A stretch of 64,000 bases of DNA from Candidatus Latescibacterota bacterium (GTDB lineage: Bacteria > Latescibacterota > UBA2968 > GCA-2709665): assembly GCA_965208835.1 (NCBI GenBank), contig OZ242358.1, positions 1,984,001-2,048,000 of the forward strand, given 5' to 3'. Made by a program: the position numbers and the translations under genes. Positions 1-10,703 of the stretch are shown piece after piece. Within the stretch, counting starts at the first letter, position 1; every line of letters starts with the position of its first letter. The notes under the pieces were generated by a model. The model made no database searches and was not told the origin of the DNA. It worked only from the letters and a program-made list of their open reading frames with translations.

Positions 1-2
1 AG

Positions 3-869
3 ATCTCGCATATTTCTTCCGTTGCCCGGCTGGCGGACGACGGCCGTCGGGCGGTCGATCATGCGCTCGAACAGGTCGACCGGGCGCGGGGCAGGGGGGT
101 GGACGTTCAATTCGACATGCACACGCGGCTCTTCGGGACAACCAACCTGAGCGCGGCGCTTCCGCTTCGGGCGCAGGAGGGAAGTTCGGAGGAAATCGCG
201 AGTCGGCTGCGCGTTCCATCCATTCGCCGCGAAATGGAAAACTGCGACAGTATCGTTGCCTCTCTGGCGCAGGGAGACTGGAGTCGGATCGTCGTCTTCC
301 ACTCGCCCATGCAGCCGGAGCATTGCGGAAAGAGCATTGCCGAACTTGCCGCCGCAGGAACCGGGAATGCCTTCGACGCCATCTGCGACATTCTGATTGC
401 GGCATCTGACCGGTTGCACGAGATTATGGTAATCGCATTCAGCTATCGCGAGACGGACGTCCGGGCGGCATTCGAACACCCGTTCTGTATGGTCGGCTCC
501 GACGCGACGGCGCTCGCGACGGACGGGCCGCTGAAGGACGACACGTTTCACGGCGCCTATACCTGGGCATCCTGGTTCTTCCGTCACTTCGTCCGGGACC
601 GGAAGCTGTTCACACCACAGGAAGCCGTGCGCAGGCTGACGTCTCTGCCGGCTTCCCGGCTGGGGTTGACGGACCGGGGCGTGATTCGAAGTGGGGCGCG
701 TGCGGACCTCGCGATTTTCGATCCGAGCGTGTTCGCCGAGCGGGGAACCACATTCGAGCCGAACCGGACCGCCGTGGGCATGCGTCACGTGCTCGTAAAC
801 GGCGGCATTGCGGTGAAAGACGGCGTCCGTTCGGACCACCGGTACGGCCGGGTGTTGCGGCGCACCTGA
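3..869 (+). CDS. N-acyl-D-amino-acid deacylase / amidohydrolase family, 5'-truncated by the window edge
   Basis: Frame is open from base 3 (ISHISSVARL...). Motifs MVGSD, EAVRRLTSLPASRLGLTDRG.I..G..ADL..FD and HVLVNG are typical of the D-aminoacylase C-terminus. Confidence 0.85.
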   Translation: MSHISSVARLADDGRRAVDHALEQVDRARGRGVDVQFDMHTRLFGTTNLSAALPLRAQEGSSEEIASRLRVPSIRREMENCDSIVASLAQGDWSRIVVFHSPMQPEHCGKSIAELAAAGTGNAFDAICDILIAASDRLHEIMVIAFSYRETDVRAAFEHPFCMVGSDATALATDGPLKDDTFHGAYTWASWFFRHFVRDRKLFTPQEAVRRLTSLPASRLGLTDRGVIRSGARADLAIFDPSVFAERGTTFEPNRTAVGMRHVLVNGGIAVKDGVRSDHRYGRVLRRT

Positions 870-917
870 TGTACTTTGCGTCTTTTCACTGCAGTTGTAC
901 GGGAAGTGAGGAATCCT

Positions 918-1919
918 ATGGTTCGAAACTCGATTTCAGGACGAATCCGCTGGACGTTCAGCGATGACAACCCGGTGATCGCCCCGGGTCAGCTGCACGC
1001 GGATATGGATAGCCGGCGCGCCGGCGCCGCCCACGTCCTGCAGCTTGGCGACCGGTACCGGATGTACTACTGGGGAACCGGAGCGAACGGGTTTCACCGT
1101 ATACTGATTGCAGAGAGTCCTGTAGACGAGCCCAACGACTGGCAGCCCGTGGGCGTCGCGCTCAGCCGGCAGCGGGACACGGGCTATAACGACGAGGGGC
1201 CGGGTTTTCCGTTTGTGGTTCCGAGGGACGACGGCCCATGGCTCCTGTATTTCTGCGGTTGGGGGAAGCCCAGGGAAGACGGCAAGCTGCCCAATACCAC
1301 GGGCGTGGCAGTCAGCGACGACGGCGGCTACCGTTTCCGCTGCCCGAAGCGGGAACCGATCCTGCCGCTGGACCGTGACTGGGACCGGGAGGGTACCGGA
1401 AGCGTATGTGTCTTGCGGGTCAACGACCGCTACCATATGTATTATACGTCTATCGGCGCCTATTTCGACCGGCCCGAAGGCGCCGTTACGGGCCACGGAG
1501 ACGTGATTCCCCGCATCGGCATTGCCTATGCGGCGTCGCCGGACGGGATCGTGTGGACAAAGCCGATGGATGACCTGATGGTCGGGCCAAGGGGATTCGA
1601 CACCGAACCCTACGAGTACATCTGTTCGAAGCCCTTCGTCTTGCGGGAACCCGGCGGCTACCGGATGTGGGTGAACACGTTCGGCACGGCCTATCGAATG
1701 AGGAGTCTGGTCGGTCCCGACCTCCGGAGCTGGCGCTGGTGCGACAGCGGGCCGGACGGGGAGTTGGGAGTGGGCAGGGCGGGCGCATTCGATGACAGAC
1801 AGCGGTGTTACGTGAGTATCGTCAAACATGGCGAGGAATACCGGTGCTGGTATACCGGGAACCGCTTTGGCGCTACCGGGATGGGTTACGCGGCGGGAAG
1901 GCTCGAGAGCGAGATTTAG
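918..1919 (+). CDS. five-bladed beta-propeller glycosidase-like protein (GH32/43/130-like)
   Basis: Repeated blade motifs (NPVIAPG, YRMYYWG, YHMYYTS, IGIAYAASPDGIVW, YRCWYTGN). ATG 918 follows GAGG. Confidence 0.7.
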   Translation: MVRNSISGRIRWTFSDDNPVIAPGQLHADMDSRRAGAAHVLQLGDRYRMYYWGTGANGFHRILIAESPVDEPNDWQPVGVALSRQRDTGYNDEGPGFPFVVPRDDGPWLLYFCGWGKPREDGKLPNTTGVAVSDDGGYRFRCPKREPILPLDRDWDREGTGSVCVLRVNDRYHMYYTSIGAYFDRPEGAVTGHGDVIPRIGIAYAASPDGIVWTKPMDDLMVGPRGFDTEPYEYICSKPFVLREPGGYRMWVNTFGTAYRMRSLVGPDLRSWRWCDSGPDGELGVGRAGAFDDRQRCYVSIVKHGEEYRCWYTGNRFGATGMGYAAGRLESEI

Positions 1920-2004
1920 CCGGCTGGTTCCGATGCGGATTCCACCTGCCGGTTCCGCGTGCGGTCAGCCAGTTGTAATTACGGGAAAATTGGGAGATCG
2001 ACCC

Positions 2005-2727
2005 ATGAAGCTGGACGAGTCGAAGTTGCGGCAGTACGAGTACGACGGATATACAACGGTGGAAGGCCTGATATCGACAGCCGAGGCGGCCGCGGTGCGG
2101 AACCGCCTTCTCGAGTTGATGGAAGGTCGGCACGACTGGCCCGACCTGCATTTTCAGGTTCTGGATCCCGGGAAATTCCGTAACAGAGAGGGTGGATTCG
2201 TGCCGGTCGGCGTCCAGAGGCCCGCGAGACAGGAGGCTGTCTTTCGGGAGATTGCGGACCACGACAATCTTCAGGGTGCGATGTCGCAACTTCTGGCCGG
2301 TCCGGTGAAGCGATTTACGGATCAGGCGCTCATCAAGCACCGCAAGATCGACGGGCATTCGTTCTATCACCAGGATTCCTACTACTGGAAGATCGAACCC
2401 GGACGGGGGTGCAATGCATGGATCGCGCTGGACGAAGTGGGCGTGGACGCCAGTGCGCTGGGAATTCTGCCCGGAACCCACAGGGATTGGACGCTGACGA
2501 CCCACGAACGTTACTACGACGAGCCGAACTTTCACGCTGCGCGGACGGGGGAAGCGTTCAGCCGCTGGCGGATTCCAACCGACGGTCTGGACCTGTCCGG
2601 CGAAGTCGTATTGCCCATGCAGCCTGGTGACGCCGCGTTCTTCTCGAATTATACGTGGCATCGGTCTGAGGTAAACCGTTCGGGCGAGCACAAGACGGCC
2701 TATGCGATCGCATATCAGTTGCGGTAA
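2005..2727 (+). CDS. phytanoyl-CoA dioxygenase (PhyH) family Fe(II)/2-oxoglutarate dioxygenase
   Basis: HQD..YW Fe motif, AWIALD, MQPGDAAFF...WHRS..N.S. GGAG RBS upstream. Confidence 0.88.
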   Translation: MKLDESKLRQYEYDGYTTVEGLISTAEAAAVRNRLLELMEGRHDWPDLHFQVLDPGKFRNREGGFVPVGVQRPARQEAVFREIADHDNLQGAMSQLLAGPVKRFTDQALIKHRKIDGHSFYHQDSYYWKIEPGRGCNAWIALDEVGVDASALGILPGTHRDWTLTTHERYYDEPNFHAARTGEAFSRWRIPTDGLDLSGEVVLPMQPGDAAFFSNYTWHRSEVNRSGEHKTAYAIAYQLR

Positions 2728-2817
2728 CGGCCGAAGACGGCGACGGTCTGAGCGTGGACGCTGGTGCAGGCAGGAGACAGGTTTACATCCGTCACAGTTG
2801 ATGGGGAGATGTTCTGC

Positions 2818-4266
2818 ATGGTAAGGAGAAAGGAGCGTGCGCCGACCTCTCGCGTGCGCTTTGGCTTTTCGCGTGTGGATATTACGCCGCCGGTGGGGAT
2901 CTACCATCGCATGTGGGGCGCGGCCAGGCACGACAGGGCCACGGGCGTTCACCGTCCGATTCTGGGCGACGTGCTGGTTTTCGGGTCGGTGGACGCACCG
3001 GGAGAAATTCGGCTGGTTCGCGCGCATCTGGACCTGGTCGGCCTTGTCGCCCGGCAGTATACGGCGCTGGTGACGTCGCTCGGCGACGCCGCGGGCGTGG
3101 GTCCGGAACGGGTGGAGGTGACGTTCTCCCACACCCACGCTTCCGGATGGTACGCGCCGGATCGATTCGTCATGCCCGGAGGCGAGCTGATCGAGCCGTT
3201 TCTGAAAGAGGTGGGAAATAAGCTGGCGAAGGCTTGCGGGGAGGCGATATCGGGGATGGGGGAGGCGTTGGTCACCTTTGCCTCCGGTCATTGCAACATG
3301 GCGGCGGACAGGGACTATCGGGATGACGCGTTCGGAGGTTTCGTCTGCGGATACAATCCGGAGGGTGACGGGGACGATACCCTGCTGGTGGGCCGGCTGT
3401 GCGACGGAGACGGCAGGGCCGTGGCGACGGTGGTGAACTATGCGTGCCACCCGACCACGCTTGCATGGGAGAATACCCTGATCAGCCCGGACTACGTGGG
3501 TGCGATGCGGGGCGAAGTCGAGGGGGTTACCGGGGCGCCCTGCACGTTCGCGCTGGCGCCCTGCGGAGACCTGGGTCCGAAAGACGGATTCGTGGGGGAT
3601 CTCGACGTCGCGGAGAAGAACGGACGCCAGCTCGGGTTTGCAGCGCTTTCCGTTCTGATGTCGATGGGGCCGCCGGGCACGGACTTCGAATACCGGGGCC
3701 CCGTCATCTCGGGCGCCACCATCGGCACGTGGGCGCACGCGGCATTCGGCAGGTATCGTCTGCGTGAGGTCTCCGTTTTTGCCGGAGGTGTGTATTCCGT
3801 GGATCTGCCGATGAAAAAACGCCAGGACCCTGAAACGCTCCAGGATGAGCTGGCGCGGTGGTCGGAAGCCGAACGGGCGGCCGATTCCGCCGGAGACGCC
3901 GTGGAGGCGCGAACCTGCGGCGCAAGGGCGGAGCGGGCCAGGAGATGGCTGGCGCGGATTGCGAACCTGCCGCCGGGCGAGACGTACCCGTATCGATTCT
4001 CCGTATACCGGATGGGAGATGCCATCTGGGTGACCTGCGGCGGGGAACCCTACAGCGATCTCCAGGTGGCGCTGCGCCGGCGGTTTCCAGGGTTCGCGAT
4101 TCTGGTTTCTCCTCTGGCGGGCAACGTGCAGGTCGCTTACCTGCTGCGGAAAGACGCGTACGGCAAGGGACTCTACCAGGAGGAGCCGTCGAGTCTCGCG
4201 CCCGGCTGTCTGGAGATCCTGACCGGAGCGATCGCGGAACGAATTGAAGAGATCACCGCCGAATAG
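2818..4266 (+). CDS. neutral/alkaline ceramidase N-terminal-like hydrolase
   Basis: Motifs RVDITPP, FSHTHA, VVNYACHPT, ISPDYVG, GGEPY. Start could also be 2809. Confidence 0.7.
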   Translation: MVRRKERAPTSRVRFGFSRVDITPPVGIYHRMWGAARHDRATGVHRPILGDVLVFGSVDAPGEIRLVRAHLDLVGLVARQYTALVTSLGDAAGVGPERVEVTFSHTHASGWYAPDRFVMPGGELIEPFLKEVGNKLAKACGEAISGMGEALVTFASGHCNMAADRDYRDDAFGGFVCGYNPEGDGDDTLLVGRLCDGDGRAVATVVNYACHPTTLAWENTLISPDYVGAMRGEVEGVTGAPCTFALAPCGDLGPKDGFVGDLDVAEKNGRQLGFAALSVLMSMGPPGTDFEYRGPVISGATIGTWAHAAFGRYRLREVSVFAGGVYSVDLPMKKRQDPETLQDELARWSEAERAADSAGDAVEARTCGARAERARRWLARIANLPPGETYPYRFSVYRMGDAIWVTCGGEPYSDLQVALRRRFPGFAILVSPLAGNVQVAYLLRKDAYGKGLYQEEPSSLAPGCLEILTGAIAERIEEITAE

Positions 4267-4288
4267 ATTCCAGGACGAGGGAGTGAAA

Positions 4289-5179
4289 ATGGCCGAGTTC
4301 GCATATCGTCCGGCTGCCGACACCTATCGTTTCGAAACCGAGGCGATGACCGGCGAAATCCGCGCGTCCGGAGACTATCACGGGGTGTGGACGCTTACAG
4401 ACAAAGTCACCGGGAGGCAGGTGATCCATCCGAAATATTCCGCGTTGAACCTGTTCCGGTTGTTCGCGGTTCACCAGGGTCTGGATCAACCGCGTCTGAT
4501 GGACCGGACCATCGACGTCCGGGACAACGCCATTGAAATACACTGGCCCGTTACCGAAACGCATCAGGGCGCGCTGACCGCCCGCTACGAGGTGGTAGAG
4601 CCGAATTGTATCGACTTGACGATACGGGTAGCATGCGAAGGGACCTATGCCGGATATGAGCTCTTCCTTTCGAATTATTTCGACAAGAGCCTGCGGCCTC
4701 ACGTCTATCTGCACGGAAGCCGGTACGGCCGGGCGAGCGAGGCCCCTGAGCTGGTTGTTCCCATGGTGAATGACGTCTTTCGCGGGACCGTCATCGTGTT
4801 TCCGAGGGACCCGCACGCCGCGAGGCGCTGCGTCGACGGACGGTGGAACCGCAGTGAGAGCAACTCGCCTACCGTGCAGATGTGCCCGGTCCGGTACTAC
4901 GGCTATCCGTTCTCGTTCCTGACTGACGCAGGGAGTCGGTTGGGCGTTGTGTTGATGTCGACGGAGGCGGACTGCTATGCCATCAGTACCCGGTATCACG
5001 TGGTCGACGAAGCCGATCGAATGACGGATTACAGCGCGTTCGATTTCTCGCTGTTCGGCGACGATCTGGTGCCGGGCAGCAGTCGCACGGTCCGGATGCG
5101 GCTGGTGTTGACGGAGGTCGATGAGGCCCTGTCCCAGCCCCTGACGTACTATCGGGCGTTTGCGGAAGACGGACGGTGA
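4289..5179 (+). CDS. hypothetical protein, possibly beta-sandwich / mutarotase-like
   Basis: ORF with GGAG RBS, co-oriented in the operon, beta-rich; family not recognised. Confidence 0.6.
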   Translation: MAEFAYRPAADTYRFETEAMTGEIRASGDYHGVWTLTDKVTGRQVIHPKYSALNLFRLFAVHQGLDQPRLMDRTIDVRDNAIEIHWPVTETHQGALTARYEVVEPNCIDLTIRVACEGTYAGYELFLSNYFDKSLRPHVYLHGSRYGRASEAPELVVPMVNDVFRGTVIVFPRDPHAARRCVDGRWNRSESNSPTVQMCPVRYYGYPFSFLTDAGSRLGVVLMSTEADCYAISTRYHVVDEADRMTDYSAFDFSLFGDDLVPGSSRTVRMRLVLTEVDEALSQPLTYYRAFAEDGR

Positions 5180-5305
5180 CCGACTGAACGATCGTCCATG
5201 GACGGTTAACCGCGAGGTTCAGGGATTGCGCTGTGTTGCGGGATTCCGGCAACTGAAACAACTTCAGGGTTGAATCGCGGCTGGCTTATTCCTATTTTTT
5301 CAAAG

Positions 5306-6499
5306 ATGAAATTACTGAAACGGCTAAGAGTTCGGCTCGCGTTCGTGGTCTGGGCGTCAGTGGCCGTGGCGGCCTGCGGGAAGACGCCACCCACCGTGGA
5401 CGATGATCTCTACGAAGCGTATCCCGGGTTGCCCTATGGAATCATGATCACCATCGCCGGCACCGGAGATCCGGGGAGGAGTGCCTCCGGATCGGGTCCT
5501 CTCGACTCGGAATTATATTTCCCTCAGGATATGGCCGTCGGCCCCGACGGCCGGACGTACATTCTGGACTGGAACAACAATCGGGTTGTCGTGATCGACA
5601 ACGGAACCTTGCGCCCTCTGATCGGCAACGGCGAACCGGGCGCGGCGCCTGCGGGTCCCGCGCTCGAGGTAGGCGTTGATCATCCGGCTAATATTTCGTT
5701 CGATCCGCAGGGGCGGTTGATCCTGTCGGCCTGGCAGAACTCAAGGATCATGCGATACGACGCTACCTCGCGCCGCGTCGAACCCATCGCCGGCCGGGGC
5801 GATCGCGGGTTCAGGGGCGATGGCGGCCCCGCTCTGGATGCCTCGCTGAATCTGCCGAGCTCCACGGCCTTCGATCCGTCCGGCCGCATGTATATCTCCG
5901 ATCAGGGAAACCTCCGCATTCGAAGGGTTGATCTGAACGGTATCATCTCTACCGTTGCGGGCACCGGACGGGAGGGGTTTTCCGGGGACGGCGGTCCTGC
6001 GACCCTGGCCGATCTGTATGCGCCCACGGGTGACGCCGCGCAGCCTGCCGGCCGGATCACGATGGATGGCCGGGGCAACCTTTATATCGCCGATACGTTC
6101 AACAACCGGATACGCATGGTGGATACCAGCGGCAGGATCAGCACCGTGGCCGGCGGCGGCAGTATTGGCGCGACCGCCGGTACGTACTCCGGAGACGGCG
6201 GGCCGGCAACCCAGGCCAGCCTTTCGCGCCCGAGCGACGTGGCCGTCGACGCGGAGGGCAACCTGTATATTGCTGACACAGGCAACCATTGTATCCGGAA
6301 GGTGGATACGGAGGGGACAATCACCACGCTTGCCGGACGGTGCGGCGAGCCGGGTTTCAAGGGCGATAGCGACCATCCCCGATGGGGAAAACTCAGGAGT
6401 CCGTTCGGAGTCGCGCTCGACCGGGAAGAAAATCTGTACATCGCGGATACGTTCAATCATCGGATCCGCCTGGTGTACAAGCATATCGCCGAACGATGA
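5306..6499 (+). CDS. NHL-repeat (teneurin-like) lipoprotein
   Basis: Lipobox VAAC after a basic/hydrophobic N-terminus. Multiple GDGGPA..A.L..P and GNLYIADT.N.RIR repeats. Confidence 0.88.
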   Translation: MKLLKRLRVRLAFVVWASVAVAACGKTPPTVDDDLYEAYPGLPYGIMITIAGTGDPGRSASGSGPLDSELYFPQDMAVGPDGRTYILDWNNNRVVVIDNGTLRPLIGNGEPGAAPAGPALEVGVDHPANISFDPQGRLILSAWQNSRIMRYDATSRRVEPIAGRGDRGFRGDGGPALDASLNLPSSTAFDPSGRMYISDQGNLRIRRVDLNGIISTVAGTGREGFSGDGGPATLADLYAPTGDAAQPAGRITMDGRGNLYIADTFNNRIRMVDTSGRISTVAGGGSIGATAGTYSGDGGPATQASLSRPSDVAVDAEGNLYIADTGNHCIRKVDTEGTITTLAGRCGEPGFKGDSDHPRWGKLRSPFGVALDREENLYIADTFNHRIRLVYKHIAER

Positions 6500-6564
6500 T
6501 CTCCTGGCTGTTAGGCGGGAGACCTGGTGTTCGGGATTCAATACCGTTTCTCGAGGGTTCGTCT

Positions 6565-7068
6565 ATGTGTGGAACGAATCTGCTGCGTATCGCCGGCATC
6601 GTGCTGGGTGCGGGTCTGATCTGTTGTTTTGCCGACGTCGCGGCAGCCGGAGGCGATAAACCGGGTACCGTGCCGCGTGTGCAGGTTGTCACGCTCGAAG
6701 GTGATACGCTGAATCTTGCCGACGTCTGCGAAGGCAAGCCATCCTTCGTCTATTTGTGGGCAACCTGGTGCAAGTCCTGCAAGAAGGACCTGAAAAACGT
6801 CTTCAAGTTGAGGAAGAAATTCGGCGACAGGGTCCAGGTCTTCGGCATTGCCTGGAAGAACAGCGCGGAGGAAATTCAGACCTTCTTCGCGGACAGGAAG
6901 GAAACGCTGCACAGCTACATTGATTCGGATGGCCGGGTGTTCGAAGCCTTCGAGACGCGTTTGACGCCCACGGTTGTCATTGTCAATGCGCGGGGCGAGG
7001 TCCTTTTTTCCGGTTACCGTTCTTTTAGGACATACAGGAAAATTCTGGAAAAGTCATTGAAGGGTTAG
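6565..7068 (+). CDS. TlpA-family thioredoxin-like thiol-disulfide oxidoreductase, exported
   Basis: WATWCKSC CxxC motif, cis-Pro loop LTPT, N-terminal signal segment. Confidence 0.85.
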   Translation: MCGTNLLRIAGIVLGAGLICCFADVAAAGGDKPGTVPRVQVVTLEGDTLNLADVCEGKPSFVYLWATWCKSCKKDLKNVFKLRKKFGDRVQVFGIAWKNSAEEIQTFFADRKETLHSYIDSDGRVFEAFETRLTPTVVIVNARGEVLFSGYRSFRTYRKILEKSLKG

Positions 7069-7285
7069 CCTCGATTCGCAATTGTTCGGGGACCTGAATG
7101 TCGAATGTATACAGAAGAACAAAGGCGAATTGACGTCAGGGGTCCCGGATACTTCAGGTCACTGGACGTGAGGGGAATTTTCATCCATTTGAACGACCTC
7201 AATACCCCGTTTTCACACGGCACCTTCTGTGCCTTTTGCGCTTTTTGTGGTAAATTGACTGTTGTCTTTTTTCGAACTGAGGTTA
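7066..7285. mobile_element. MITE-like element family A, copy 1
   Basis: Ends TAGCCTCGATTCG...CGAACTGAGGTTA form an imperfect TIR. Similar to 12656-12852, 22468-22687 and 46832-47090. Starts at the TAG of the TlpA gene. Confidence 0.7.
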
Positions 7286-7318
7286 GCTGCAAATAACGTC
7301 GCTGGAGGATCCACGACC

Positions 7319-8293
7319 ATGAGACGCGCGTTACCGGTTTTCCCGCTGATTCTGTTCGCCCAACTGATTCTCACGGACCAGCTCGTACTGGCGCAGCCGG
7401 GCGTGAGTTGACGCCGCCCCGTGCTCCCGGGCGGGAGAATGCTGCAGGGCAGTCTGATTTCGAAGGACCTTCTGGTTCTGAGCATGAATTACGAATACGA
7501 GTATCTGGGCGATGCGAAGTTCGGTACCGGACCGATACCCAACATCAACCAGGAAGTGACCAGTATGTCAACGGTATCCGTATTCGCAAGTTACGGGGTT
7601 ACGGAATGGTTCGGCGCCGCCGTGGTGCTTCCGTTTCGTTCCATAACCAACGATAAAATTCTCCTTCCAGGTCAGTACGACAACCAGTATCTGGGCGGCG
7701 AGTACGTCCGGCACGCCGCCGGTCTCGGCGACGTCGTTCTGATGTTGAACTTTGCGCCGCCTCTGCCGGAAGCGTTGCCCGGGCTTCTTTTTTCGGCAGG
7801 CGTCAAGCTCGCGAACGGGTCGACCCACGCGGTCGATGAGTACGGCGAGCGGTTCGCCGATCTGCTGCAGGTGGGTTCCGGCAGCATGGACCCCATTCTC
7901 TCTGTAAGTCTTTCACGCTCGTTCGACAATCTGTTCTTCTCCGGTATGCTATTCACCCGCATTATTTCCCGCGAGAATGTATACGGATACAAATATGGAA
8001 ACGAGTTTCAAGGCATCTTTTCCATGGATTATCACCACGGGGACAAGCTCATTGCGGGTCTCGGCCTGAACCACGTTCACACGGCCCGCGATTTTTTCCA
8101 ATATGGAAAGATCGCCCGAAAACGTGGGGGCACCTGGGTTTATCTTGCGCCGAAGCTGGGCGTACGGGCGATGGAGAATCTGAGCCTGGAAGCGAGATTG
8201 CCACTTCCTGTTTACCAGAATGTGAATGAGAGCCAGCTGACTTCCAATTATCAGCTCCACGTTGGCGCCACGTATCACTTTTTCGCCCGGTAG
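7319..8293 (+). CDS. outer-membrane beta-barrel transporter (phenol-degradation MetA-like family), candidate selenoprotein with in-frame TGA at 7409-7411
   Basis: GGAGG RBS and ATG 7319 give signal peptide MRRALPVFPLILFAQLILTDQLVLA-QPGVS*RRPVLPGG, in frame with ORF 7421-8293. Barrel motifs GLGD, QVGSGS.D, GGTWVYLAP, LPVYQNVN and an aromatic C-terminus. Confidence 0.75.
7412..7450 (+). promoter_or_regulatory. putative bacterial SECIS hairpin
   Basis: CTCCC-GGGC-GGGAG stem-loop (7424-7437). The G-rich apical loop begins 18 nt after the TGA. Outer GCCC/GGGC pairing is possible. Confidence 0.55.
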
Positions 8294-8343
8294 CAGCGGG
8301 AACGGCTGCACCGCGTGATATCGTCAAATTGCGGGAGGCCGAG

Positions 8344-9075
8344 TTGCCGCTGAATGAAACCGAGAAGATGTGGGCCGAGCTGGCGCCGTTTTACGACGTC
8401 ATGTATCAGTGGAAGGACTATCGGGCCGAGTCGGAGCGGGTTCATCAGTTGATCCGTTCACATTGTGTGTCGCACGGTAACACACTGCTGGACGTCGCGT
8501 GCGGGACCGGGGGGCATACCCGATATCTGCGGGACCACTACGATATCACCGGCATGGATCTGAATCGGGAAATGTTGAAGGTAGCCCGCAGAAAAATACC
8601 CGGTGTCACATTTCTGTCCCGGGACATGACGTCCTTCAATCTCAAGCGTCGCTTTGACGCGGTCATCTGTCTGTTCAGTTCAATCGCCTACGTCAGGACG
8701 TACCGGAACCTGAAACGGACGATCGCCTGTTTTGCAAGACATCTGAAACCCGGCGGCACTCTGATTATCGAGCCCTTTTTCACGAAAGAGACGTTCGTTG
8801 CAGGATCGATTCACGGAGGCACGCTTGAAGCCGACGGCGTAAAAATCTCCAGGCACAACGTGAGTCGCCGCCGCGGAAACCTTGCCGTCCTCGATTTTCA
8901 TATTCTCCTCTCTACGAAAAAAGGCACCCGGTATTTCCGCGACACCCACGAGATGGCCTTGTTCGACAGGGAGAGATTTCTCGAGATTATGGCGCATGCG
9001 GGTCTGCGGCCGAGGTACAAGGAGAGCGGTCTGATGCCGGGCCGCGGACTCTACGTCTCGCTGAAGGCCGTTTGA
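8344..9075 (+). CDS. class I SAM-dependent methyltransferase
   Basis: LLDVACGTG motif I, FDAVICLFSS, HLKPGG. TTG start after GGAGG (alternative ATG 8368). Confidence 0.88.
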   Translation: MPLNETEKMWAELAPFYDVMYQWKDYRAESERVHQLIRSHCVSHGNTLLDVACGTGGHTRYLRDHYDITGMDLNREMLKVARRKIPGVTFLSRDMTSFNLKRRFDAVICLFSSIAYVRTYRNLKRTIACFARHLKPGGTLIIEPFFTKETFVAGSIHGGTLEADGVKISRHNVSRRRGNLAVLDFHILLSTKKGTRYFRDTHEMALFDRERFLEIMAHAGLRPRYKESGLMPGRGLYVSLKAV

Positions 9076-9338: not shown

Positions 9339-10703
9339 ATGGAGCCACATTCGGACAACGGCAATGCAGGGACCGACCGGAATCCGCAGGTTCTGGGCAA
9401 GAATTTCATGTTTCCGCCTCATGTGATCGACGATATACACATAAAGGCGAATCTGGGTCGGTACCGCATGCGCGGCATGGCGCTTTTCAAGGAGATCCCG
9501 TCGTGGGACGACCTGACGTTTCTGCCAGGCACGCTCACCCGGTTCGTCATCGAGGGGTACCGCGAGAAATGCGAAACCAGGACGGTGCTTGGGCCGATGG
9601 CCGAACGGCCGCTGGTGCTGGATATTCCCATTTACGTCACGGGGATGAGTTTCGGCGCGCTGTCTTACGAAGCGAAGGTGGCGCTGGCGAGAGGTGCCAC
9701 AATGGCGGGCACGGCAACCTGTTCCGGAGAAGGCGGAATGCTGCCCGACGAGCGTCGGTATTCGGAGAAGTGGCTGTACCAGTGCATTCAGTCCCGCTAC
9801 GGGTTCAATCCGCACCACATGCGTCTTGCCGACGGCGTGGAGTTTTTCATCGGCCAGGGGTGCAAGGTGGGCCTCGGCGGGCACCTGATGGGCCAGAAGG
9901 TGACGGACCAGGTGGCTGAAATGCGCTCGTTGCCGGCGGGGATCGACCAGCGCTCGCCGGCCAGGCACCCGGATTGGCTGGGTCCCGACGATCTGGCCCT
10001 GAAGATCGAGGAGATTCGGGAAGCCACCAACTGGCAGATACCCATCCAGCTGAAGCTCGGCGCGGCGCGGGTCTACGACGATGTGAGGATGGCCGCCAAG
10101 ACCGGCCCCGACAGCATCTACATGGACGGGATGGAGGGTTCGACGGGGGCGGGCCCCCACCTGGCTACCGAGGAGACGGGCGTGCCGGGTATCGCGGCCA
10201 TCAGGCAGGCCAGAAAGGCGCTGGACGACGTCGGAAAGACCGGGGAGATTACGCTCGTCTATGCGGGAGGCATTCGCAACGGAGCCGACGTGGCCAAGGC
10301 GCTCGCTCTTGGAGCCGACGCGGTAGCCATCGGCACCGCGGCGATGGTGGCGCTGAATTGCAACAAGGATATTCCGGAGGCGGACTACGAGGGAACGGTG
10401 GGCGTTCCTGCGGGATCCTGCTATCATTGCCATACCGGGCTGTGTCCGGTGGGCGTGGCCACCCAGGATCCGGTACTTCGCAGCCGCCTGGACCCGGACG
10501 AGGCGGCAGAACGGGTGTATAATTTCCTGCATACCCTCGCCATCGAATGCCAGATGTTCGCCAGGGCCTGCGGCAAGACCGACGTCCATTCCCTGGAGCC
10601 GGAGGACCTTGCCGCTCTCACGATGGAAGCATCCGCCATGGCGGAGGTGCCGCTTGCCGGCACCCGCTATACGGTGGGGCATCCCGAGATGAACAGGTAT
10701 TGA
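9339..10703 (+). CDS. mgsC: FMN-binding glutamate synthase family protein, N-methylglutamate synthase subunit C (MgsC/GlxD)
   Basis: GMSFGALS, GQGCKVGLGGHL, SPARHPDW, CYHCHTGLCPVGVATQD Fe-S motif. Located in a methylamine cluster with gmaS. Confidence 0.85.
   Translation: MEPHSDNGNAGTDRNPQVLGKNFMFPPHVIDDIHIKANLGRYRMRGMALFKEIPSWDDLTFLPGTLTRFVIEGYREKCETRTVLGPMAERPLVLDIPIYVTGMSFGALSYEAKVALARGATMAGTATCSGEGGMLPDERRYSEKWLYQCIQSRYGFNPHHMRLADGVEFFIGQGCKVGLGGHLMGQKVTDQVAEMRSLPAGIDQRSPARHPDWLGPDDLALKIEEIREATNWQIPIQLKLGAARVYDDVRMAAKTGPDSIYMDGMEGSTGAGPHLATEETGVPGIAAIRQARKALDDVGKTGEITLVYAGGIRNGADVAKALALGADAVAIGTAAMVALNCNKDIPEADYEGTVGVPAGSCYHCHTGLCPVGVATQDPVLRSRLDPDEAAERVYNFLHTLAIECQMFARACGKTDVHSLEPEDLAALTMEASAMAEVPLAGTRYTVGHPEMNRY

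Follow-up and report, generated by a model that had tools for sequence, protein, structure and literature searches.

A conserved in-frame UGA followed by a SECIS-like hairpin points to a selenocysteine-containing outer-membrane barrel in Latescibacterota and other bacteria

Introduction

Two 12-stranded outer-membrane channels of known structure come closest to the protein considered here: the COG4313/PF13557 channel Pput2725 of Pseudomonas putida F1 (PDB 4rl8) and the amyloid secretion channel FapF (PDB 5o65/5o67). The N-terminal ~14 residues of Pput2725 occupy the inside of its barrel, which they enter from the periplasm (PMC4493636). Among selenoproteins, Table 1 of a 2026 review (PMC13188914) lists 119 families, of which two are outer-membrane proteins: an MtrB/PioB barrel (GSU2204 family; NF041027) and a TonB-dependent receptor of the FCYXU type (NF049945). 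The bacterial selenocysteine insertion sequence (SECIS) of the fdhF/SelD type is a hairpin 3' of the UGA, with a G in its apical loop. Here, we describe a gene in a 64,000-nucleotide (nt) stretch from the genome of a Candidatus Latescibacterota bacterium (assembly GCA_965208835.1, contig OZ242358.1, positions 1,984,001 to 2,048,000), which we call the window and whose numbering we use throughout. Judged by comparison with its homologues, the segment 7319-8293 is very probably one gene for an exported outer-membrane barrel in which codon 31, a UGA, would be read as selenocysteine (Sec).

Results

Layout of the barrel gene

In the list of open reading frames (ORFs) for the window, the barrel begins at GTG 7421 as a 290-residue product that lacks a signal peptide. 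A preliminary description of this DNA had pointed this out and had proposed a longer gene, and each element that it named (the GGAGG, ATG 7319, the signal peptide, TGA 7409 and a same-frame barrel with no further stop) was located where it had been placed. The parts of the gene share one frame, running from ATG 7319 through the signal peptide and TGA 7409-7411 into the barrel ORF GTG 7421..8293. The signal-like stretch comprises 25 codons, basic and then hydrophobic, and ends in VLA followed by QPGVS; the cleavage site between VLA and Q was placed by the -3/-1 rule. The TGA is followed by RRPVLPGGRMLQ, after which the frame stays open up to TAG 8291-8293 with no other stop. A promoter and terminator scan of 6900-8500 returned nothing above shuffled sequences. 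The features of the gene are as follows.

7319..8293, plus strand: whole gene, predicted to encode a 12-stranded outer-membrane barrel as a precursor of 324 residues; stop TAG 8291-8293.
7304..7308, plus strand: GGAGG, putatively Shine-Dalgarno-like, 10 nt 5' of ATG 7319, read from the letters.
7319..7393, plus strand: coding part of the predicted signal peptide, M1-A25, MRRALPVFPLILFAQLILTDQLVLA, with predicted cleavage between VLA and QPGVSU.
7409..7411, plus strand: in-frame TGA, candidate Sec codon, residue 31 of the precursor and about residue 6 of the mature protein; same column in 112/112 loci.
7412..7423, plus strand: 12-nt spacer between the UGA and the hairpin, codons RRPV; family-wide, both Arg positions use all six Arg codons.
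7424..7437, plus strand: SECIS-like apical hairpin CUCCC-GGGC-GGGAG, with 5 base pairs (bp) and a 4-nt loop, proposed from comparative evidence and likeness to the selD hairpin.
7469..8290, plus strand: predicted beta-barrel body, residues 51-324 in the structural model, from AlphaFold2 (AF2) and Foldseek.

The TGA is conserved and the frame is maintained on both sides

Among 61 related genomes searched, all 14 of the same genus carry the gene in two copies (orthologue, 85-99% identical; paralogue, ~52%), and it also occurs in a sister genus; every close match contained exactly one in-frame TGA. In the loci from these relatives, the TGA occupies one column in 28/28 close-family members, within AQ[PG]GVS-TGA-RRPVLPGG. 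A scan of assembled-genome contigs yielded 43 loci, of which 14 were near-identical orthologues (85-99%) and were left out; the remaining 29 (L061-L089) all have the TGA at that column. Metagenomes contributed another 61 loci, and the 55 that retain an N-terminus carry it without exception (6 lack the N-terminus). Pooled, the TGA stands in the same column in 112/112 loci at identities of 37-100%, a range that excludes one contaminating sequence as their source. Conservation to this extent lies far outside what chance would give. Some genomes occur in both of the first two sets, and the pool reduces to 85 distinct genes and 71 distinct 48-mers after the TGA. The paralogue in the source genome (G000) lies outside the window (G000:C1:2535338-2536270, minus strand; locus L152), is ~50% identical, and has its TGA at 2536210, with a 6-bp GGGC hairpin starting 11 nt after the UGA.

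The possibility of a sequencing error at 7409, also raised in the preliminary description, is excluded by independent contigs of three other studies (runs X5, X7 and X11), which keep TGA 7409-7411 unchanged. These contigs differ from the window at seven positions (7333, 7346, 7363, 7420, 7423, 7450 and 7472), and the two that were checked, 7420 and 7423, fall on the third base of a Pro codon and of a Val codon.

Coding constraint is evident on either side of the TGA. The upstream stretch is open, hydrophobic and signal-peptide-like in all loci, with a variable sequence. Immediately downstream, both Arg positions draw on all six Arg codons across the family with no start codon before them, so selection there acts at the protein level. 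The TGA is not reassigned in the carriers, since 32/105 complete genes use it as their terminator. Taken together as comparative evidence, the pattern shows that the ribosome would read on through the UGA. Among public proteins, 22/24 close matches are truncated ORFs without a signal peptide, and nearly all are called at 253-289 residues, in line with the earlier suggestion that standard gene calling would miss an N-terminal plug.

By record titles, the carriers are Latescibacterota, metagenome-assembled genomes labelled Gemmatimonadota, KSB1, Calditrichaceae and Fidelibacterota/Marinimicrobia, and the GC content of the gene ranges from 29 to 58%. Near-identical orthologues (88-99%; L047, L049 and L057 compared with L048, L050 and others) are titled either Gemmatimonadota or Candidatus Latescibacterota, and one of the two labels is probably wrong. 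Many sequencing runs from several studies that contain 7150-8400 of the window, or close variants of it, are labelled sponge metagenome; the source organism may be sponge-associated.

A covarying hairpin follows the UGA

The hairpin consists of CTCCC (7424-7428), GGGC (7429-7432) and GGGAG (7433-7437). Seventeen nt separate the UGA from the first loop base, so that the loop begins at the 18th nt, as had been counted before. The free pair of the stem joins the third positions of a Leu codon and of the second Gly codon; in the 71 distinct sequences it is CG in 40, UA in 19, UG in 6, AU in 4 and GC in 2, and it is never unpaired. Codon choice within the stem is similarly restricted. The Leu codon is CTN in 85/85 genes (against 67% of Leu codons in the rest of these genes, or 52% for the 45 low-GC genes), Ser following GG, at +27, is AGY in 63/63 (39% elsewhere), and Arg at +27 is AGR in 17/17 (18% elsewhere). 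AGGU, GGGC and GGUC occur as loops, along with a few further variants, always with G at position 2, and the hairpin pattern persists from 29 to 58% GC. An extended lower stem in the minimum-free-energy fold was considered and rejected; it is not conserved, with 82% of cells paired and many pairs broken. The covarying stem and the biased codons point to a structured RNA signal, predicted from these sequences, at the distance expected for SelB.

The selD gene of the source genome offers an internal positive control. It lies outside the window (G000:C1:4401300-4402223, plus strand; locus L043) and is itself a selenoprotein gene, with an in-frame TGA at 4401327 in the site CG-U-AAK and a hairpin with a 7-bp stem, whose GGUC loop starts 17 nt after the UGA. 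This spacing of 17 nt between UGA and loop is common to the barrel gene, the L152 paralogue and selD. The resemblance to bacterial SECIS geometry that had been noted at the outset is borne out by the spacing shared with selD and by the covarying stem.

The selenocysteine machinery is present in the source genome and most carriers

The source genome encodes SelA (483 bits), SelB (361 bits; its gene adjoins tRNA-Sec and selA) and SelD (359 bits), and with the tRNA gene selC the full set selA, selB, selC and selD is accounted for. The tRNA-Sec, selB and selA genes form one cluster outside the window (G000:C1:3536430-3539724, minus strand; loci L001/L036). SelA was found in the source genome and in 13/13 same-genus genomes searched, as well as in 13/15 carriers outside the genus, where 11 are full-length and 2 are fragments at contig ends. 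The Sec reading put forward in the preliminary description is supported by these genes, together with the TGA of 112/112 loci and the covarying hairpin.

The protein models as a 12-stranded barrel without cysteine

Neither Pfam (E up to 1; the PF13557 cut-off was not reached) nor NCBIfam (E up to 0.1) returned a family for the window protein, and PF13557 matches 7/25 aligned members of the family and superfamily, with a best E of 1.5e-10. An AF2 model built from 25 sequences reached a predicted local distance difference test (pLDDT) score of 81.9 and a predicted template modelling (pTM) score of 0.78, with about 12 strands; about 25 residues, Sec among them, precede strand 1. By Foldseek, the best match was FapF (5o65; E 1.1e-11), followed by Pput2725 (4rl8; E 6e-11, template modelling (TM) scores 0.63/0.75), and FapF was the sole match (E 3e-4) in a comparison of the sequence profile with the PDB. 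The predicted fold is that of a 12-stranded barrel of the COG4313/FapF type. The mature window protein contains no cysteine, nor do 81/82 distinct mature proteins, so that Sec would stand as the only chalcogen nucleophile.

Distant relatives carry a cysteine motif at or next to the Sec position

A family-profile scan of 1.84 billion representatives gave 5998 clusters at E up to 1e-3. Considering the best 149 of the 5998, 111/134 relatives with an N-terminus have Cys at the Sec column when U is scored as C, within an ASCGxxxC motif that directly follows the signal peptide. This alignment is biased, because the profile let C stand for U. The Cys motifs that the preliminary description had ascribed to related transporter barrels are real, being present in these 111 distant relatives; an unbiased alignment shifts U by one column. 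The safest statement from sequence is that Sec probably sits at or next to the second Cys of the superfamily N-terminal motif, with the first Cys replaced by Gln or Gly.

Gene neighbourhood

Upstream of the barrel gene, the window contains two genes on the same strand, with the thioredoxin-fold gene directly next to it.

5270..6499, plus strand: NHL-repeat beta-propeller gene, 5' of the thioredoxin gene (Pfam NHL/TEN_NHL); the same arrangement occurs in L061.
6382..7068, plus strand (ORF as listed): gene for a predicted exported, TlpA/ResA-like thioredoxin-fold protein with a WCKSC motif (Pfam AhpC-TSA/Redoxin).

The NCBIfam ResA/TlpA-like match of the thioredoxin-fold gene falls below its cut-off. 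As listed from ATG 6382, its ORF overlaps the end of the NHL ORF by 118 nt (6382-6499); ATG 6565, which lies after the end of the NHL gene and ahead of a hydrophobic stretch, is the likelier start. A methyltransferase gene follows the barrel gene downstream. No metal or selenium genes were found among the window neighbours in 1-5200 and 9339-10703, which include amidohydrolase, PhyH and glutamate-synthase-like genes.

We compared the neighbourhoods of a diverse set of 12 loci in other genomes. In 9/12, the gene immediately upstream, in the same orientation, encodes a homologous thioredoxin with the motif WA[TS][WY]CxxC, and it often comes to within a few bases of where the barrel begins; no such gene was found at L064 (a genus paralogue), L086 or L087. 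In 11/12 loci, a gene for a beta-propeller protein of ~350 residues, with an N-terminus that resembles a lipoprotein signal, lies downstream of the barrel gene (L062, L063, L064, L069, L079, L080, L081, L084, L086, L089 and, in part, L087). The L152 paralogue is likewise followed by a propeller lipoprotein gene and has no adjoining thioredoxin gene. Between the NHL protein of the window and the downstream propeller of other phyla, likeness is at the repeat level only (E 0.005). In P0026, a homologue from the databases, the barrel continues into a thioredoxin domain (PF00085) at the C-terminus; the N-terminus called for P0026 is truncated, and an upstream stop may be concealed there as well. 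In seven loci (L063, L069, L080, L081, L084, L086 and L089), large FG-GAP/ASPIC (UnbV) proteins that carry a type-IX secretion sorting domain are encoded near the cassette, on either strand.

Eight loci of distant CGxxxC relatives from the same phylum were also scanned. Three adjoin di-haem cytochrome c peroxidase (CCP)/MauG genes (L151, L154 and L157) and one adjoins MbnP (L163); the loci scanned are not next to the thioredoxin-propeller pair. MbnP, MbnH and MauG-type genes take part in copper handling, and TlpA acts as a reductant of cysteines in copper sites. The MbnP and MauG neighbours of the Cys relatives are a lead that may point towards a metal role.

Discussion

Weight of the evidence

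A number of observations weigh against Sec at codon 31 and deserve to be set beside the evidence above. With respect to the hairpin, it is short, at 5-6 bp, its folding energy is no better than that of shuffled sequences (z 0.69), no Rfam match was found in 7300-7560 at E up to 10, and a crude filter for similar hairpins matches 897 of the 141,459 TGAs of the genome (0.63%). Four of its five stem pairs are set by the conserved residues L-P-G-G-(S/R), so the case for RNA-level selection rests on one pair and codon choice; the four amino-acid-fixed pairs stay paired in 68 to 71 of the 71 distinct sequences, with only +15/+28 failing, in 3. Two carriers have no clear SelA: G065, an 80%-complete genome in 820 contigs, gave only weak matches to pyridoxal-phosphate enzymes, and G068, a genome of 1.6 Mb, gave none. 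With regard to the protein, residues 19-45 of the model have a pLDDT of about 40-60, and placement of the N-terminus as a plug is an inference. With X in place of U, MAFFT puts the Sec one column ahead of the second Cys, and hmmalign, used locally with a profile of the Cys relatives, left the N-termini unaligned. The loci are kin, so locus counts are not independent events, and selenium incorporation is a prediction from sequence.

Three close homologues lack the TGA and carry Ser (P0013 and P0017) or Trp (P0136) rather than Cys; they are singletons on contigs of 1209, 7102 and 634 bp, respectively. The preliminary description had held that Trp, Arg or Gly in homologues would mark a simple nonsense mutation. 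The 112 loci with TGA speak against that, while the single Trp and the two Ser are residues other than Sec or Cys that do occur. P0136 reads AGVS-W-RRPILPGG, and its Trp may come from a genuine TGG or from gene calling with a genetic code in which TGA means Trp.

Of the alternatives to a chemically active Sec, the one that survives best, though it is quite unlikely, holds that Sec is inserted mainly for regulation, with synthesis of the channel tied to selenium supply and the residue itself chemically dispensable. This view is compatible with the decoding part of our explanation, and it could draw on the two close homologues in which Ser replaces Sec and on the position of the site in a low-confidence, probably flexible segment. 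However, no other part of the N-terminus is as conserved as GG[VI]S-U-RRPxLPGG, relatives show CGxxxC there, and the thioredoxin partner is conserved; from these three observations, a chemically active Sec is suggested.

Less likely again is read-through of the UGA by some means other than Sec, through a near-cognate tRNA (Trp, Cys or Arg) or another recoding signal. Trp in one homologue, Ser in two, the minimal size of the hairpin and the lack of a Rfam SECIS match would all be in keeping with it. Against this, SelA co-occurs in 27/29 carriers tested, the hairpin shares its spacing and loop type with the SECIS of selD in the same genome, the stem covaries and shows codon bias at SelB distance, and in distant relatives Cys occupies that column or an adjacent one.

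Very improbable is an arrangement of two genes, in which a 30-residue leader peptide ends at the TGA and a barrel without a signal peptide starts from GTG 7421 or ATG 7439. Both codons are present, and a GTG, TTG or ATG lies 4 codons past the TGA in 42/112 loci, but starts are not conserved in position: 56/112 loci have their first in-frame ATG at least 21 codons past the TGA, and 39/112 have even the first ATG, GTG or TTG that far away, inside conserved sequence that leads up to or into strand 1. In addition, RRP is conserved after the TGA, ahead of any start and with synonymous turnover of six-fold Arg codons, and a barrel without a signal peptide cannot get to the outer membrane. Finally, a nonsense mutation, pseudogene or sequencing error that breaks the gene at codon 31 has next to no probability, for although the stop is single and in frame, an ordinary-looking GTG start lies downstream and the database proteins of the family are nearly all called as 253-289-residue short forms, the TGA shares its column in all 112 loci of several phyla, which excludes mutation or error, is kept in the contigs of three other studies and is flanked on both sides by sequence under coding selection.

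A model for decoding and function

Returning to selenocysteine as the preferred reading of codon 31, we propose that the short hairpin would recruit SelB with Sec-tRNA(Sec), its 4-nt loop, N-G-G/U-N, beginning 17 nt after the UGA, as the comparative data suggest. Cleavage of the signal peptide between VLA and Q would leave Sec ~6 residues from the mature N-terminus, in QPGVS-U-RRPVLPGG. By analogy with Pput2725, this Sec-bearing N-terminus may sit at or inside the barrel's periplasmic opening in a plug-like manner. There, the lone selenol would most likely act as a soft-metal or chalcogen ligand, or as a redox-reactive site, on the channel plug. The co-encoded periplasmic TlpA-like thioredoxin (WCxxC) could keep Sec reduced or recycle it, as synteny and the one fusion suggest.

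The specific function is much less certain than Sec decoding. One possibility, which we put forward tentatively and regard as somewhat doubtful, is that the N-terminal selenolate works as a ligand or relay by which Cu(I) or another soft metal, or else a compound of sulfur or selenium, is passed over the outer membrane, with the thioredoxin resetting the selenolate and the propeller lipoprotein as a third partner.

In that case, marine and sponge-associated bacteria of the FCB group, including the abundant Marinimicrobia, would share a conserved selenium-dependent device for outer-membrane transport or gating. The Sec reading itself would add a selenoprotein family beyond the 119-family catalogue of 2026 and NCBIfam. 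It would also reveal a weakness of discovery methods that depend on close Cys homologues, given that the close family has TGA throughout and its Cys relatives are remote. A single Sec in a cysteine-free protein at the outer membrane and periplasm, an oxidising place, raises the question of what role a lone selenol plays on a channel plug, and likewise why a dedicated thioredoxin and a propeller lipoprotein accompany the barrel.

Comparison with known systems

No description of this family was found in the accessible literature on outer-membrane or Latescibacteria/Marinimicrobia selenoproteins, and among the unclassified candidates from the Global Ocean Sampling (GOS) study (PMC2398784), a read with this TGA could be included. 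Table 1 of PMC13188914 was found to hold no PF13557 entry, and in the accessible parts of PMC13188914 and PMC9312934 no mention was found of PF13557, phenol, porin, Latescibacteria or Marinimicrobia. The two outer-membrane entries that the catalogue does hold, NF041027 and NF049945, are also predicted Sec-containing outer-membrane barrels, but they belong to other barrel families, and the protein described here differs in having its Sec at the mature N-terminus.

With regard to the barrel, the window protein shares the 12-stranded architecture of Pput2725 and differs from it in having Sec and in its thioredoxin and beta-propeller lipoprotein partners; the word cysteine is absent from the accessible part of the Pput2725 paper (PMC4493636). 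No hydrocarbon-degradation genes were found among the neighbours scanned. FapF, likewise 12-stranded, is the best fold match at an identity of 12-14%, and the neighbours scanned (thioredoxin, NHL and other beta-propellers, FG-GAP/ASPIC, methyltransferase) gave no Fap-family Pfam matches. The barrels of the ASCGxxxC superfamily are homologous and have a chalcogen motif at the same place, right after the signal peptide; they have two Cys, whereas the window family has one Sec and no Cys, and the distant forms that were aligned are ~25-31% identical.

With regard to the RNA signal, the hairpin resembles SECIS elements of the fdhF/SelD type in its position 3' of the UGA, its apical-loop G and the 17-nt spacing found in selD of the source genome, and it differs from them in having only 5-6 bp, a 4-nt loop, no conserved lower stem and no Rfam match. 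In work on E. coli fdhF, a minimal hairpin 11 nt after the UGA reportedly suffices. The decoding proposed here is thus the standard one and the barrel fold is a known one; it is their combination, and the operon in which they occur, that is previously undescribed.

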